This document shows, piece by piece, positions 35,617 to 40,682 of a DNA stretch of 49,269 nucleotides. The stretch lies in IMG/VR virus record IMGVR_UViG_2778261422_000003. One strand, 5' to 3'. Both the position numbers and the translations under genes were made by a program. Under the pieces are notes generated by a model. That model did not search any database. It was not told the origin of the DNA and saw nothing but the letters and a program-made list of their open reading frames with translations. The first letter of the stretch is position 1. The number at the start of each line of letters is the position of its first letter. The stretch is from a virus (lineage: Duplodnaviria; Heunggongvirae; Uroviricota; Caudoviricetes).

Positions 35617-35746
35617 CAGAATCCTTCCGGATAATTAGCTCTCCCCTTTAAGGGACCATCCCTCTTATCCCTGCGCGCTACTTAAGTATTTTTGATTCTA
35701 TTCCGGCACCGTCCAGAACTTCAAACGCGTTGAAAATAAAAACAAA

Positions 35747-35764
35747 AACCCGCCGAAGCGGGTT
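35747..35764 (-). terminator. intrinsic terminator downstream of hok
   Basis: hairpin aacccgc-cgaa-gcgggtt; on the minus strand followed by a T-rich run (ttttgtttttatttt). Confidence 0.65.
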
Positions 35765-35832
35765 AAGTGCGGGTGCGTTGAGGATGCCTGCCACATCAGA
35801 GGTGGCGAGGGATTTCTCCCTCGCCGGGTCTC

Positions 35833-35988
35833 TTACTCCTCAGGTTCGTAAGCTGTGAAGACAGCGACCTCCGTCTGGCCGGTTCGGATTCGTACCTCGC
35901 AGAGGTCTTGCCTCGTTACCAGTGCCGTCACTATGACGGTTAAACAGATGACGATCAGGGCGATTAACATCGCCTTTTGCTGCTTCAT
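35833..35988 (-). CDS. hokD: Hok-family type I toxin
   Basis: ORF 35833..36045; internal start MKQQKAMLIALIVICLTVIVTALVTRQDLCEVRIRTGQTEVAVFTAYEPEE (51 aa) matches the Hok/RelF family; structured leader with 9-bp inverted repeat about 36105..36145. Confidence 0.85.
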   Translation of the reverse strand: MKQQKAMLIALIVICLTVIVTALVTRQDLCEVRIRTGQTEVAVFTAYEPEE

Positions 35989-37177
35989 AGCCTGCTTCTC
36001 CTTGCCTTCCGGCACGTAAGAGGCTAACCTACATGTGTCTAGCATGAAATTGGCCTCAGATTAATGTTAAGCGTCTTGCAGGACGCGTAATGTTAACTGG
36101 GGCTTTTCTCTATCTGCCTTTGGTGTTCACGCCCGAGGCAGATAGCCTCAAGCACCCGCAGGCATTCTACTTAACTCCCGTTACCTCGCCAATATGCAAT
36201 CAGTCAGAAAGGCGATCCATAAGAACAATGGCAAGAAAATAAATCGCCATTACAGCCGCAATAGCCAACGCACATTTGAGAACCAGCACCACAACCTCCT
36301 GTATTGGACGTACACCAGTCCTGATAAATATGAGGCTGTCTCGTCAGTGATTCAATGCAACTATTAGATATAGTTTCTCTGTTTTTTCTATGGAAATGGG
36401 ACACAACAACCTGTCGCAACCAACGCTTCTTTAAACAGACTAAATCAGGCGCAAGTCAACATTTTGTACAAGCAGAACGTAACCTGTTCTAACAGAACTC
36501 TTTGAATGAACAGCAATGATTACGCTCACAACGACTGATTGTTATTTGATATAATCCCCTGTACTCCTACGGCTATGCACGTTCAACTCCAGCGTTACAT
36601 TCGGTACCGGATAGTAATTCCATTCTCGGACATGGTATGAACGTAACCGGGTTGCCTCGACGTCCGAACGATTGCCTTAGTACGATGTGTTTTATATTTT
36701 TGCCTAACATCTGCTGGAAAGTTTCACCAATCACCATTTTATCCCAGCTTTCAAAGGATTTCTGGAACCAGAATAATTTTCTGGCGCAGGAATCTTCTTC
36801 ATTTATTACATCCTCCACCAGTAAAGTTATCAATGATTCAACTTAACATACGGTAATGATATCCACTTTAGTTCTACACACTTTAGAGATTTTCATTTTT
36901 TCTATCATCAGTCAGTACTCTTCTGAGTGACCGGCTATTCAGGTATTCATAAAGTCGCTCGCTGTTGTATTGGCAACTTCTGGATCTGGGACTAAGCAAA
37001 CCACTAAGTTGGAAAATGTCCGCTGTGAGCGAGCAGTGGTCATTGCTTACAGCATTCTATGTGAATTAACAGTGGACTAGGCACAATGAACACCTGAGGG
37101 ATCACATTTCATAGGTGACAGTTAAACGCGCTATAAGCAGTCCTTAACAAGAAGGACTGTTATCTGAACTGCCTTGA

Positions 37178-38134
37178 CTAGTCTAGTCTCTGTGGAAAGA
37201 GCGCAAGATGCAGATCACCATACTTATCAGGATTTGAATTTATATGCATCAGCAAAACATCCAACTGATTTGTTAAATATTTATTCCTTTCTTTTTTCTC
37301 TTTATCTTCAATATCCTTGAGATTTTTCTTTTCTTCTTTTTCAATGGCTTTCCTTTCCTTTTCAGCTTTTTCCCTAATGTTTACATCTGCCAGTTTTTTA
37401 GCTTTATCCGCTCTAAACTTAATTAAATTATCAACAATACTCTTAACATATTGTTTACCAGATAGTATTTTTCTCGCCTCTTCGATAATAGTAATACTGT
37501 AATCAACACACTCATTACCATATTTAAAAGCATACTCAGGGGATAATTCTTTTATAGCTGAGGAACTAGAATTATCAGACAAATATGGTTCACTTAAATG
37601 AGCGAAAGATCCCCTATACGAGGAGAAATTTTCCCATGACGAAAAGTTTTCATCTTCCACATCACAATGAATACCTACAGATTGAAGAACAGAATTTAAA
37701 TGCTTTGTTTTTATTCCGTGATTGGAAGTGATGACACTCTTCCATTTCATGATAGTCCTCATTTCACAATCAACAATAAACTCAACAACATGTTGTTTTA
37801 TATAAGAACTATCATCATCCCTATCATCAGCATCCTCGTTAGTAACAAATCTGTCATCATAACTTTTCGTCCCATTTAATAAAAACATCAATGGTATAGT
37901 AACCTCCCCACATTCTTTGAACAGGAAAAACGAATATTTAGCGACAAAAAGGCTGACATCCTCAACAAAATTTTCAAGAGCTGCATGTAATAGAACACAA
38001 TAACTTCTTGTATCTAATTTAAATTCCTCAACACTACCAGTACCGTTCATGTGTTTTTTAAGAAAGCGATTATACAAGGCATCATTTGCGTCATACAGAG
38101 TGTAATACATATCATCTAATAAGGTAATCTCCAT
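37178..38134 (-). CDS. uncharacterised protein, distal gene of the AT-rich cargo operon; candidate effector partner of the DUF262 protein
   Basis: 318-aa ORF starting 5 nt after the upstream gene's stop (operon-like); very AT-rich codon usage; R-x4-H motif (YRGSFAH); acidic patch (EDADDRDDD); Lys/Glu-rich coiled-coil C-terminus. Confidence 0.75.
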   Translation of the reverse strand: MEITLLDDMYYTLYDANDALYNRFLKKHMNGTGSVEEFKLDTRSYCVLLHAALENFVEDVSLFVAKYSFFLFKECGEVTIPLMFLLNGTKSYDDRFVTNEDADDRDDDSSYIKQHVVEFIVDCEMRTIMKWKSVITSNHGIKTKHLNSVLQSVGIHCDVEDENFSSWENFSSYRGSFAHLSEPYLSDNSSSSAIKELSPEYAFKYGNECVDYSITIIEEARKILSGKQYVKSIVDNLIKFRADKAKKLADVNIREKAEKERKAIEKEEKKNLKDIEDKEKKERNKYLTNQLDVLLMHINSNPDKYGDLHLALFPQRLD

Positions 38135-38138
38135 TTTT

Positions 38139-39326
38139 TTACCTTAAGGTTGATGGGATCTCATTGCTTAATCCCATTGAAGAATTTAATCTTTCATATG
38201 CCAGTCTAAACCTTCTTACATGTTGTTCTTTACCTGTCGTAGTTGACTCAATTGCTACAACAAACTCAGCATTATCAAAAAGAGATTTTATAGAGTTAAT
38301 AAATTCATTTTTTTTCTCTATTAAATCATCTACCTTGTTATTCTGTATTGTACTAGCAATATAGTTAACTAAAACCTCAAAAAATGTACGATTAAATCTT
38401 GATTCCCATCGTTCCTCTATTGGAAGCCATTTTCTACCTACTTTTGTTTCTTCACCATCAAAAAGGTTGACAAGCACCTCACATGATTCATTAAAAAGGT
38501 TGAGATAGTTACATACACCAGCTTCTTTAGATGCGAAATTATCATTCATCAATTTAGTGAAGTTATCTAAATAGACCCTAAGAGAACCATTGTATTTTTC
38601 TGGGTTAAGGTTTAATGCTAGAAACTTCAATAAAATCTCAACATCCCGATATCTTTTATCTGATGACTTAAGTTTCATTATTTTATGCAGATGCAAATCG
38701 TTATCTGTATGCCTTGTAATGAAATTACTAAAATCCCCTTTGTAAATCGAGTTCCTCAACTCCTGCATAGACAATGGTGAAGATCCAGTATTTAGTCTGT
38801 AAAATATATCATATAGGACGCTATAATCCTTAAAACCTGAAAGTATTGTGCAGCGTAGATCAGCATTGAGTAAGAATCTAGCATCGTCTTTAGAAAACTC
38901 TGAGAATTTCAACCCTTCAATCGATTTTTTAATTGTTAGATTTCTTAACTTAGCATTACCATCCCATGTATTAAAACTAGGATCGATGAAACCATTTATA
39001 GCTAATAGTCTCTGTTTTCCATCGATGACCATGTATTTTTTCTTTTCGCCTATAACTTCAGCTAATACTACTTCGGGTACAGGGTACCCCACAAGTAATG
39101 ACTCTATAAGCTTTGATCTTTTATCGTTGTCCCATACATTTCTTCTTTGAAAGTCAGGATTCAAATCAATGTTTCCTTCCTCAATTTGATGAAGAATCGT
39201 CTGAACCGTCCAGTCTCTGGAATAAACAACAAGCTCTCCGACGTCTATATCGTTACCAGCGCTTTCAACTTGTTCTTTATTACTTTCAATAATCAAATCA
39301 TCTAATTCATCAATCATTGTATTCAC
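38139..39326 (-). CDS. DUF262 (ParB/Srx-fold, GmrS-like) domain protein, proximal gene of the AT-rich cargo operon
   Basis: 395-aa ORF; N-terminal region carries the DUF262 signature (PDFQRRNVWDNDKRSKLIESLLVGYPVP ... MVIDGKQRLLAINGF); no DUF1524/HNH-like motif seen in the C-terminal 250 residues. Confidence 0.8.
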   Translation of the reverse strand: MNTMIDELDDLIIESNKEQVESAGNDIDVGELVVYSRDWTVQTILHQIEEGNIDLNPDFQRRNVWDNDKRSKLIESLLVGYPVPEVVLAEVIGEKKKYMVIDGKQRLLAINGFIDPSFNTWDGNAKLRNLTIKKSIEGLKFSEFSKDDARFLLNADLRCTILSGFKDYSVLYDIFYRLNTGSSPLSMQELRNSIYKGDFSNFITRHTDNDLHLHKIMKLKSSDKRYRDVEILLKFLALNLNPEKYNGSLRVYLDNFTKLMNDNFASKEAGVCNYLNLFNESCEVLVNLFDGEETKVGRKWLPIEERWESRFNRTFFEVLVNYIASTIQNNKVDDLIEKKNEFINSIKSLFDNAEFVVAIESTTTGKEQHVRRFRLAYERLNSSMGLSNEIPSTLR

Positions 39327-39715
39327 CTTATTTACTATGTTAAGTAGTAAGAGTCAAGTTGACTCATCTTAAAATCTACCTTCCCTTCCTTGTCTAGCAC
39401 CGGAAGACAAACGTCCCACAGTGTTTTTTTACTGCACTCTCATCTCGAAAGCTATAAGTAGTTCTCTGTGCCATTCTACTGCTGGTTTCAAGGAATATTA
39501 TCTGGTTTCCAATTTTACAATATCTACTCTATTTTTGTATCGACTAATGCTATAAGCAATATAACTGAAGCACACTTTATTATGCTACCCTCCATTTTCG
39601 GCTATGATTCAAACCTACAAACATTGAATTTACTGTTATAAGGAGATTTTTACCACGTCCGCTTCTGGCATAAAGTTGACATACGGATACGAACGAAATA
39701 AGTGCTCTAGAATTC

Positions 39716-40432
39716 TTATTGTTTATATTGGGCAAGATTTTTAATAATACTTTCCCTCTCATTAAGGAGACTTATATACATTGATTCATCGAGTGTATTC
39801 TTGAGCTTGAAACGGGATTTATGTATTGATAATTTAGATACACCATCACTTAATGCTGAAGCAACTAATTTTGTATCTTCTATGTTTTTTAGGTTCGATA
39901 GTAGCGTTAGGATCATATCATTTAGATCAAGTAACTCGCTATTTATGCGCATAGGTGAGAGGTCTTTACTATCTAGTTGAGAGTTAATGGAATCAATCTT
40001 ATTATTAATTCTCTCTATAGACCCAACGATTCCTTTTCTAGCTTCAATACGAAGGATTTCACTCTTGTTTCTAGAGTTTGTCTGGAAAAGCATTTCTGAA
40101 GATAACATTGATGACGCACGATACATATCAGAGGCTAACTGCTTAACACTTTCTCTAAAGCTTGAATAATTTAATATTGCTGAACCAAACAATAAAATAA
40201 TTGGGCCATAAGCAGTTACCTTTGCTTTAATTGAACCTTCAGTAAATTTAATTTCAATTAAAACATCATCAGATAAAAAGAATTTTATTCTTTTATCAGC
40301 AAAATCCTCTATTTCGTTTCTAATTCGCGATAACTTTTCTTTACGAATTACAGCACTTACCTGTTTCAACCATCTCGGCTCAACATGAACATATGACTCA
40401 CATAATATGTTGCTGTTTATATAATCGGCCAC
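39716..40432 (-). CDS. uncharacterised protein in the AT-rich cargo island, separate transcription unit upstream of the DUF262 operon
   Basis: 238-aa ORF, AT-rich, Ser/Leu/Ile/Asn-rich; about 390 bp intergenic gap to the downstream DUF262 gene; no recognisable motif. Confidence 0.6.
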   Translation of the reverse strand: MADYINSNILCESYVHVEPRWLKQVSAVIRKEKLSRIRNEIEDFADKRIKFFLSDDVLIEIKFTEGSIKAKVTAYGPIILLFGSAILNYSSFRESVKQLASDMYRASSMLSSEMLFQTNSRNKSEILRIEARKGIVGSIERINNKIDSINSQLDSKDLSPMRINSELLDLNDMILTLLSNLKNIEDTKLVASALSDGVSKLSIHKSRFKLKNTLDESMYISLLNERESIIKNLAQYKQ

Positions 40433-40682
40433 AATTACATCCTTGATATATTATCTTATCATTAGATTATTACCGAGAGTTTACAAAAAATCAACAAATT
40501 TCAAGATTCCTTTTCCCGATGTCAGTGTAAGCGCTCCCTATTAACATAAAAATGATCTCGAATATGTGATGGAGTATGGATAAATGCTTTCCATTCCTAT
40601 CACAAAGCTGACAACCAGACTAGTTCTGGTCTTGTGCAACAGTACTGTCCATCAATCTCTGAACTAATGCTCTTTAATCTCG

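Follow-up and report, generated by a model that had tools for sequence, protein, structure and literature searches.

The question raised by this locus is whether two tightly linked genes in an AT-rich segment of a lambdoid prophage form an anti-phage module, and how such a module relates to the systems already described. Both ORFs given in the preliminary description are present in the window (the whole 49,269-nt stretch of DNA that was analysed), on the minus strand at 38139..39326 (395 aa from a GTG) and 37178..38134 (318 aa). The first gene (A) encodes a DUF262 (ParB/Srx-fold NTPase) protein with a C-terminal helical NsnA-like region, and is directly followed, in the same orientation, by a gene (B) for a RiboL-PSP-type HEPN protein with a C-terminal extension. 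The start of A is probably ATG 39317 rather than GTG 39326, giving a gene of 38139..39317 and a protein of 392 aa, because an AAGGTG Shine-Dalgarno sequence lies 6 nt upstream of this ATG, the PGAP call is 392 aa, and the close homologues are all 392-393 aa long. The gap between the genes, earlier given as 5 nt, is 4 nt (TAA-aaaa-ATG), and the RBS of B sits inside the 3' end of A.

The pair lies in an AT-rich island extending from about 37000 to about 40650, with a GC content of 0.30-0.37 compared with 0.45-0.55 in the flanks. The base composition described earlier was thus borne out, although an island of this extent also holds a third, unrelated minus-strand gene (39716..40432, 238 aa) that had not been mentioned. 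A three-gene system including this gene was considered and rejected: none of the nine independent contexts in which the pair occurs contains the 238-aa gene, cassette homology stops at 39682, just short of it, and its own family, phrog_31894, is distributed independently of the pair. Judged by these sequence comparisons, it is unrelated cargo. The slot occupied by the pair is bounded by hok/sok (Rfam RF01794, 115 bits, 35983-36157) on one side and by Ren-like/DUF977 and O-like replication genes on the other, as had been proposed. In other E. coli the same slot holds an AIPR abortive-infection protein, an AAA ATPase, DUF4209 or DUF7380, supporting its earlier description as a variable cargo hotspot and documenting the hokD/Ren-like junction of Qin-like prophages as such.

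The extent of the mobile two-gene cassette (37011..39682, unstranded) was defined by blastn homology to independent insertions (L010, L011, L012, L003 and L004). Homology to L011/L012 spans this interval at 90%, and homology to L010 ends at 39333. The upstream leader (39318..39682, minus strand), presumed to be the promoter region, accompanies the two genes only in the closest relatives. The leader gave no Rfam match and contains no repeat array, so no RNA antitoxin was found there. A promoter scan of the leader returned only weak sigma-70-like matches, with fewer promoter-like sites than in shuffles, and a terminator scan found none.

Analysis of A against Pfam gave a match to PF03235 (DUF262 / GmrSD_N) of 3.7e-24 and 86.4 bits, far above the cut-off of 33.2, confirming the domain assignment made earlier; none of the three island proteins had a Pfam match to DUF1524, in agreement with the reported lack of this domain in A. 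Among PADLOC models, A matched NsnA at 2.8e-65 (219 bits, model positions 37-381 of 385), PD-T4-2_A (PDLC04027) at 1.8e-40 (137 bits, model positions 9-285 of 363 only) and, weakly, 'REase_II' at 3.5e-10. It also matched phrog_2598 at 5.6e-69, and a PDB sequence search with A returned nothing. About 68 columns of A are invariant among 36 relatives. These include, across several phyla, D99-G100-K101-Q102-R103 (DGKQR, 39009..39023, minus strand), a variant of the DGQQR motif to which NTP binding or hydrolysis is assigned in the DUF262 proteins GmrS, SspE and BrxU (PMC10952713).

B, for which no family had been recognised, matches PF18735 (RiboL-PSP-HEPN) at 33.9 bits with a cut-off of 28.4, so that the profile-HMM search places both proteins in Pfam families above cut-off. 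Neither B nor five of its relatives had a PADLOC match at E<=1 (PADLOC-DB v2, presumed to contain the PD-T4-2_B model). The HEPN domain (residues about 1-226; 37457..38134, minus strand) is common to roughly 460 family representatives, and a deep profile search with B matched profile positions about 5-224 in nearly all 200-230-aa matches. Within it lies the putative catalytic R-x4-H motif, R174-GSFA-H179 (RGSFAH, 37598..37615, minus strand), identified by translation and conservation; this motif and the DGKQR of A were both found at the locus as quoted earlier. R174 and H179 are invariant across 132 sequences, as are E54 and E58, while G175 and A178 are at least 90% conserved and H50, N138 and G140 are near-invariant. 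An AF2 model of B built from these 132 sequences, replacing a 7-sequence model with a pLDDT of 57.5, predicts a helical bundle for the HEPN region, with the four helices of the HEPN fold. The closest structural neighbours of the model are HepT-type toxin-antitoxin (TA) toxins, at sequence identities of only 8-13%, and a PDB sequence search with B gave a chance match only. The acidic patch earlier listed as a feature of B corresponds to a low-confidence loop that is not conserved.

Beyond the HEPN domain, the model contains a long single helix (residues 227-300; 37235..37456, minus strand; pLDDT 93-98) with an ER/K-rich core at 240-290. With 61% charged residues, 16 i/i+4 opposite-charge pairs and no heptad register, this stretch, rich in Lys and Glu, resembles a single alpha-helix of the ER/K type and not the coiled coil reported earlier. 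It is followed by a conserved C-terminal tail beginning NPDKYGDLHLALF (37181..37234, minus strand), with a predicted short helix at 306-312; the tail residues L291, D292, Y305 and F313 are invariant among seven long-form B proteins. Typical B partners are 200-240 aa in length and end after the HEPN domain, compared with which the long form carries an extra ER/K helix of ~90 residues and the C-terminal motif. Among 466 representatives, the long helix was found only in P0001-P0007 and P0128, and possibly P0196; helix and C-terminal motif together are carried by only about 4 of the 466 cluster representatives.

Loci of relatives were collected using the DUF262 (A) alignment as query. B lies directly downstream of A in 21 of the 22 species-representative genomes that could be assessed, spanning Proteobacteria, Bacteroidota, Poribacteria, Chloroflexi and Clostridia, and in 16/16 earlier loci as well. 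Essentially all genomes with this A subfamily have the two genes side by side, in one orientation and with little space between them, and their pairing is essentially obligate, in line with the neighbourhood conservation that had been suggested as a check. The window proteins are full-length members of a widespread subfamily of such pairs, consisting of ~390 aa (A) and ~210 aa (B), and are 40-56% (A) and 23-36% (B) identical to members in Klebsiella, Stenotrophomonas, Agrobacterium, Bacteroides, Hymenobacter and others. B diverges faster than A in every comparison, with A/B identities of 98/89, 78/49, 53/32 and about 43/25%. Faster evolution of this kind is the usual pattern when a protein of a conflict system serves as effector or interface.

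Carriers of the cassette include lambdoid prophages (the window and L011/L012), a P4-like satellite (L010) and a P2-like prophage (L005), where the genes for the tail fibre and gpU lie on either side of it; small plasmid-like contigs with Rep/Mob genes (L003 and L004) have the pair as their principal or sole cargo. Flanking sequence is different at each locus, supporting a horizontally moving cassette and, with it, the horizontal acquisition proposed earlier. Searches with B by tblastn gave no match among PLSDB plasmids and a single match, in a Klebsiella phage, among phages.

An anti-phage role is the best reading of the pair. We estimate a probability of roughly 70% that it is a two-gene DUF262 and RiboL-PSP-HEPN cassette of the PD-T4-2 architecture, sitting as prophage cargo at a defence hotspot. 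This reading draws on the domain identities, the constraint on A, the obligate pairing, the mobility into known defence hotspots together with AIPR and other cargo in the same slot, the faster evolution of B, and the precedent of PD-T4-2. That system, from E. coli ECOR65 and labelled 'DUF262, HEPN', protects against T4, as found both by cloning and by native deletion (Vassallo et al. 2022, PMC9519451).

In the mechanism that we propose, A and B would be co-produced by coupled translation through the 4-nt gap and the RBS inside the end of A, forming a complex in which B is kept inactive. A would act as the sensor and bind DNA, as DUF262 does in GmrSD, SspE and BrxU (reviewed in PMC10952713 and PMC12065111), with NTP binding or hydrolysis serving as the switch on meeting phage DNA. 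Since PD-T4-2 defends against T4, the trigger may be modified phage DNA. The switch in A would free or re-orient B, followed by dimerisation of B through its HEPN domains to form a composite RNase site. Cleavage of RNA (tRNA, mRNA or rRNA) would then stop translation and phage production, probably at a cost to the infected cell. In the long form of B, the roughly 74-residue ER/K helix would keep the HEPN domain and the C-terminal motif a constant distance apart; as a spacer or tether, it would dock either on A or on another copy of B. We infer that B is an RNase, what it cuts, what triggers it and what the ER/K tail does, and the sensor-to-RNase logic is an analogy with PD-T4-2 and other DUF262 systems.

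A more specific extension, to which we give a low probability, is that long-form B is a mechanistically distinct subtype in which an ER/K helix of conserved length is a rigid spacer, separating the C-terminal motif by about 10 nm from the active site of the HEPN domain and tethering the RNase to the DNA-bound DUF262 sensor or another target. More broadly, the whole ~390 + ~210 aa family would be an analogue of type IV restriction that cuts RNA, coupling DUF262 DNA sensing to a trans-acting HEPN RNase.

A toxin-antitoxin (addiction) module, with B as a HEPN RNase toxin and A as its protein antitoxin, would stabilise the carrier element and give defence only as a by-product. The B model has HepT-type TA toxins as its closest structural neighbours, the tight coupling and the gene order are reminiscent of TA operons, B is fragmented in three loci (L018, L022 and L031) as expected of a toxic gene, and carriage on the small plasmid-like contigs is equally compatible with addiction. 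We nevertheless consider this explanation unlikely. A is an enzyme-like protein whose length and invariant positions, including the NTPase motif, are in excess of what a simple antitoxin needs, and the MNT nucleotidyltransferase that is the cognate antitoxin of HepT toxins is absent. Moreover, PD-T4-2 came from a selection for phage defence, and its deletion from the native host sensitised that host to T4. TA and abortive-infection roles are in any case not mutually exclusive.

Still less probable is DNA targeting in the manner of type IV restriction, in which A would itself be a nuclease or nickase acting on phage DNA, an activity known from some proteins of the ParB fold, and the HEPN protein a non-catalytic adaptor or regulator. 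The relationship of A to the GmrS part of GmrSD, to SspE and to BrxU, its weak 'REase_II' match, the account by Anantharaman et al. (2013, PMC3710099) of ParB domains acting as DNases in association with R-M, and the direct (non-Abi) immunity given by 7 of 11 putative DNase systems (Vassallo et al., PMC9519451) are consistent with it. However, the invariance of the R-x4-H dyad and both glutamates of B across 132 divergent sequences argues for a catalytic HEPN protein, and the cutting domain of characterised DUF262 systems, DUF1524, is absent. A truncated or degenerate Menshen system (NsnABC) that no longer has its NsnB ATPase or NsnC effector, with an unrelated HEPN gene as neighbour, fits NsnA as the best PADLOC match of A but is highly improbable, given that the island has no ABC-ATPase/DUF3696 or inPIN effector gene, that NsnB/NsnC were not found to follow A in most A-subfamily members (22 assessable genomes), and that conservation of the HEPN partner in 21/22 genomes across phyla makes the pair the ancestral unit of the A subfamily rather than a remnant.

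On the anti-phage reading, pairs of DUF262 and HEPN proteins would be a widespread class of defence module spanning several phyla. The effector of the ~390 + ~210 aa subfamily is missed by current PADLOC models, so defence censuses probably count too few members of this subfamily. In E. coli there is a rare natural variant of it, with an ER/K helix and tail added to the effector, which may be a convenient handle on how a DUF262 sensor controls an RNase. None of this overturns current ideas.

Comparison with known systems places the pair as follows. In GmrSD, BrxU and SspE, DUF262 senses (modified) DNA and controls an effector, and cutting is carried out by a separate DUF1524 domain (PMC10952713). 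The window pair shares the DUF262 domain with its DGxQR NTPase motif but lacks the DUF1524 His-Me nuclease, its putative effector being an RNase-type HEPN protein encoded by a separate gene. In Menshen (Millman 2022), NsnA is proposed to sense DNA and to pass the signal on to an RNase effector (Gao et al. NAR 2025, PMC12065111). A aligns over the full NsnA model, covering ParB-DUF262 and the downstream helical ParBDB-type region, whereas the NsnB ABC-ATPase/DUF3696 transducer and the NsnC inPIN effector are missing from the island and the HEPN gene directly downstream takes the effector position. Compared with HepT/MntA, additional helices and the ER/K tail set B apart, as does its low sequence identity, and its partner is a DUF262 protein instead of an MNT nucleotidyltransferase, no NTP_transf match being found in the neighbours. 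DARNA (PD-T7-3) was rejected as a relative, being a different, single-protein HEPN system.

The closest precedent shows that the module, earlier called undescribed and its effector non-canonical, has an architecture already on record. 'Ribo L-PSP-HEPN ... operon with ParB' was listed by Anantharaman et al. in 2013 (PMC3710099), and PD-T4-2, validated in 2022, has the same two-gene order of DUF262 protein then HEPN protein, is likewise carried by E. coli, and has PF18735 as the best family of its B subunit by the authors' HHpred (PMC9519451). Two E. coli phage candidates for PD-T4-2, P24B2 and vB_EcoM-689R6, proved to be other DUF262 pairs. Although A matches the PD-T4-2_A profile, it scores higher on NsnA (219 against 137 bits) and aligns to only about the first three quarters of the PD-T4-2_A model, and B has no PADLOC match; PD-T4-2, compared through profiles and its published description, may for these reasons be only a cousin. 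Its two ORFs, at 338334-339873 of ECOR65 record QOYX01000002 with A as RCO39066.1 and B unannotated, together span only 1,540 bp, so that its B is about 165 aa compared with 318 aa here. By sequence, the window pair is a divergent relative of the known DUF262-HEPN architecture represented by PD-T4-2, notable mainly for the rare long charged helix on its HEPN protein.

The two minus-strand ORFs reported in the preliminary description were both recovered, as the upstream gene A (38139..39326, 395 aa from a GTG start) and the downstream gene B (37178..38134, 318 aa). An AAGGTG Shine-Dalgarno sequence lies 6 nt 5' of an ATG at 39317, gene A is annotated by PGAP as 392 aa in the single other E. coli genome carrying it, and its close homologues are 392–393 aa long, so that translation most likely starts at ATG 39317 rather than GTG 39326. 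The junction with gene B reads TAA-aaaa-ATG, giving a gap of 4 nt instead of the 5 nt proposed earlier, and an AAGG within the 3' end of gene A precedes the gene B start. The AT-richness noted by eye was borne out, with a GC content of 0.30–0.37 at ~37000-40650 versus 0.45–0.55 on either side. Since low GC extends this far, the island takes in a third gene as well, on the minus strand (39716..40432, 238 aa), which the preliminary description omitted.

DNA homology delimits a mobile cassette, corresponding to window 37011-39682 against L011/L012 (lambdoid prophage, 90%) and 37139-39333 against L010 (P4-like satellite, 86%), and the 238-aa gene therefore falls outside it. This gene is a full-length member of phrog_31894, a family without assigned function, and matched nothing in Pfam, PADLOC or NCBIfam. 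The family comprises 58 clusters, distributed over Enterobacterales, Aeromonas and Vibrionaceae; a Serratia homologue lies in an integrase islet alongside unknown genes of 108 and 216 aa, without DUF262 or HEPN, and nowhere besides this island is the gene linked to the DUF262-HEPN pair.

The island is flanked on the left by ydfU-like, rem-like and hok/sok genes, and on the right by a DUF977/Ren-like gene, an O-like replication gene and a YdaT-like gene. The left landmarks of the slot are a hok-type toxin ORF (35833-36045, minus strand) and the sok antitoxin RNA (35983-36157, minus strand; Rfam RF01794, 115 bits), with a weak isrK-like Hfq-binding sRNA match just 3' of hok (35743-35824, minus strand; E 0.015, with 25.7 bits falling short of the gathering score of 50). 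Only 1 of 5,426 complete E. coli genomes contains the island, at 99.9% identity (2018-05-5CC, NZ_AP027886.1, L001 4808-5970); there, an IS3 element lies directly 3' of the HEPN gene and homology stops at window 37167, indicating that the hok side was replaced. Genomes matching both island flanks at ~97% carry alternative cargo in the equivalent slot (window ~36600-40680): an AIPR family (abortive infection) protein in E24377A (L044), a 798-aa AAA ATPase in T309.Ta3 (L045), and a DUF4209 protein in CFSAN061770 (L046) and many others, with DUF7380 also seen. These cargoes, mostly uncharacterised single large genes, support the suggested variable hotspot, located at the hokD–DUF977 junction of Qin-like prophages.

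The assignment of A to DUF262 was confirmed by a Pfam GmrSD_N/DUF262 match (3.7e-24, 86 bits), and no DUF1524 was detected in A by the same search, as anticipated. A also matches phrog_2598, and an alignment with 36 relatives from several phyla contains ~68 invariant columns, DGKQR among them. B had been assigned to no family, but matches PF18735 HEPN_RiboL-PSP with 33.9 bits (gathering threshold 28.4), and PGAP names it 'HEPN domain-containing protein'. Searching 1.84 billion representatives with a profile retrieved 466 relatives, nearly all of 200–230 aa and aligning solely to profile positions ~5-224. In an alignment of 132 of these, four residues do not vary (E54, E58, R174, H179) and six more reach at least 90% conservation (H50, N138, G140, G175, A178, P199); the R-x4-H motif recognised previously (RGSFAH, 37598-37615) thus contains two of the invariant residues. 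A is a constrained ParB/DUF262 NTPase-type protein and B a HEPN protein with a predicted intact catalytic site.

An AlphaFold2 model of B (pLDDT 92.9, pTM 0.81) was generated from the 132-sequence alignment for P0001, a B-family protein differing from the window protein by one residue. Past the HEPN domain, it shows a single unbroken helix at 227-300, followed by a short terminal helix. Charged residues make up 61% of the stretch 240-290 and hydrophobic ones 18%; 16 opposite-charge pairs are spaced i/i+4 and a heptad register is absent, a pattern that seems to fit an ER/K single alpha-helix better than the coiled coil proposed earlier. This tail is rare, occurring in only ~4 of the 466 representatives. 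The acidic patch is present, but in a variable loop of lower model confidence.

A and B form one unit. B was paired with A in 16/16 earlier loci, using HMMs built from our alignments, and a single scan of species-representative genomes returned 25 loci spanning Delta-, Alpha- and Gammaproteobacteria, Bacteroidota, Poribacteria, Chloroflexi and Clostridia. Three were cut by contig ends, and B lies directly 3' of A in 21 of the 22 assessable loci. The exception, in a Clostridia MAG (L043, 1924-3581), has the most distant A (30% identity), followed after 11 nt by a 180-aa gene with no HEPN signal and only a sub-threshold tRNA-ligase-kinase match, which may be an effector replacement. Gene order and tight spacing are kept in L002, an unknown contig, and in L003 and L004, both small and Rep/Mob plasmid-like, where B is 32–49% identical and every flanking gene differs; one of the latter two also carries a RelE/HTH pair. 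In Klebsiella, Stenotrophomonas and Agrobacterium, A homologues of 40–56% identity each precede a gene for a PF18735 protein of 211–272 aa, the Klebsiella pair being flanked by the tail fibre and gpU genes in a P2-like prophage. Closer relatives occur beside primase and Ogr/Delta genes in L010, and beside a lambda-P-like gene, in opposite orientation, in L011/L012. Next to the 89%-identical cassette, L011 9540-11564 encodes a 674-aa protein weakly matching HNH_2, possibly a further defence gene in that slot. In every comparison A is better conserved than B (98/89, 92/82, 78/49, 74/46, 54/36, 53/32 and ~43/25% identity), and the spacing is mostly -32 to +17 nt. The pair is a real, well-defined two-gene cassette, of obligate adjacency and mobile into defence hotspots. 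The HEPN gene looks split or truncated in three loci (L018 788-1491, L022 1686-2003, L031 1255-1844), as does the DUF262 gene in L031. Frameshifts, pseudogenes or assembly errors could account for this, or a toxic effector might have been inactivated.

The pair is very probably an anti-phage system. By analogy with the GmrSD, SspE and BrxU literature, the Menshen sensor/effector model and general HEPN biology, A would sense phage DNA through an NTP-dependent switch, which would license a B dimer to cut RNA and block phage production. The ER/K helix and conserved tail might tether B to A or set a distance. Neither an RNA antitoxin nor a repeat array is present. The pair could instead constitute a toxin–antitoxin or addiction module, but this is unlikely. 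Less probable still is a DNase activity of A with B as adaptor. A degenerate Menshen (NsnABC) origin is hardly credible: A covers the full PADLOC NsnA model (2.8e-65), but NsnB and NsnC are absent, which excludes membership of that system. The cassette is of interest for its rare ER/K-tailed effector and for belonging to a widespread subfamily whose effector current PADLOC models miss (none matched B or five B relatives).

Among other known systems, GmrSD is excluded by the absence of DUF1524, and HepT/MntA by that of MNT. The cassette had been put forward as undescribed, which is untenable since its architecture is already known and validated: a 'Ribo L-PSP-HEPN ... operon with ParB' is on record (Anantharaman et al. 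2013, PMC3710099), and PD-T4-2 from ECOR65 is labelled 'DUF262, HEPN' (Vassallo et al. 2022, PMC9519451). HHpred analysis by the latter authors assigned its A to PF03235 (99.7%) and its B to PF18735 (97.8%, residues 23-162); the cloned system protects against T4, and deletion sensitises the native strain (PMC9519451). PD-T4-2 has been grouped with DUF262 systems lacking DUF1524 and called uncharacterised (review PMC10952713; 2025 Menshen paper PMC12065111). Two coliphages considered as PD-T4-2 sources were rejected, both carrying other DUF262 pairs. Peduovirus P24B2 (NC_049387.1, L013 140-2015) encodes a 381-aa DUF262 protein and a 239-aa HEPN protein in the P2 old/tin hotspot, with the replication nickase alongside; the HEPN protein is best matched by the MAE_28990-type (65.9 bits, versus 29.6 bits for RiboL-PSP) and by no PADLOC model. 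In vB_EcoM-689R6 (ON470584.1, L014 2477-4188), directly after the integrase and adjoining icd, a 350-aa DUF262 protein is followed after 8 nt by a 216-aa protein without Pfam or PADLOC match, which may represent a different effector. Compared through profiles and its published description, PD-T4-2 shares with our pair a DUF262 gene and a PF18735 HEPN gene. However, its two ORFs span only 1,540 bp, leaving ~165 aa for its B against 318 aa here; B here has no PADLOC match; and A here is matched better by NsnA than by PD-T4-2_A, whose match (1.8e-40) covers model positions 9-285 of 363 only. The pair is related to, though divergent from, an architecture already known and validated, and is not a new kind of system.
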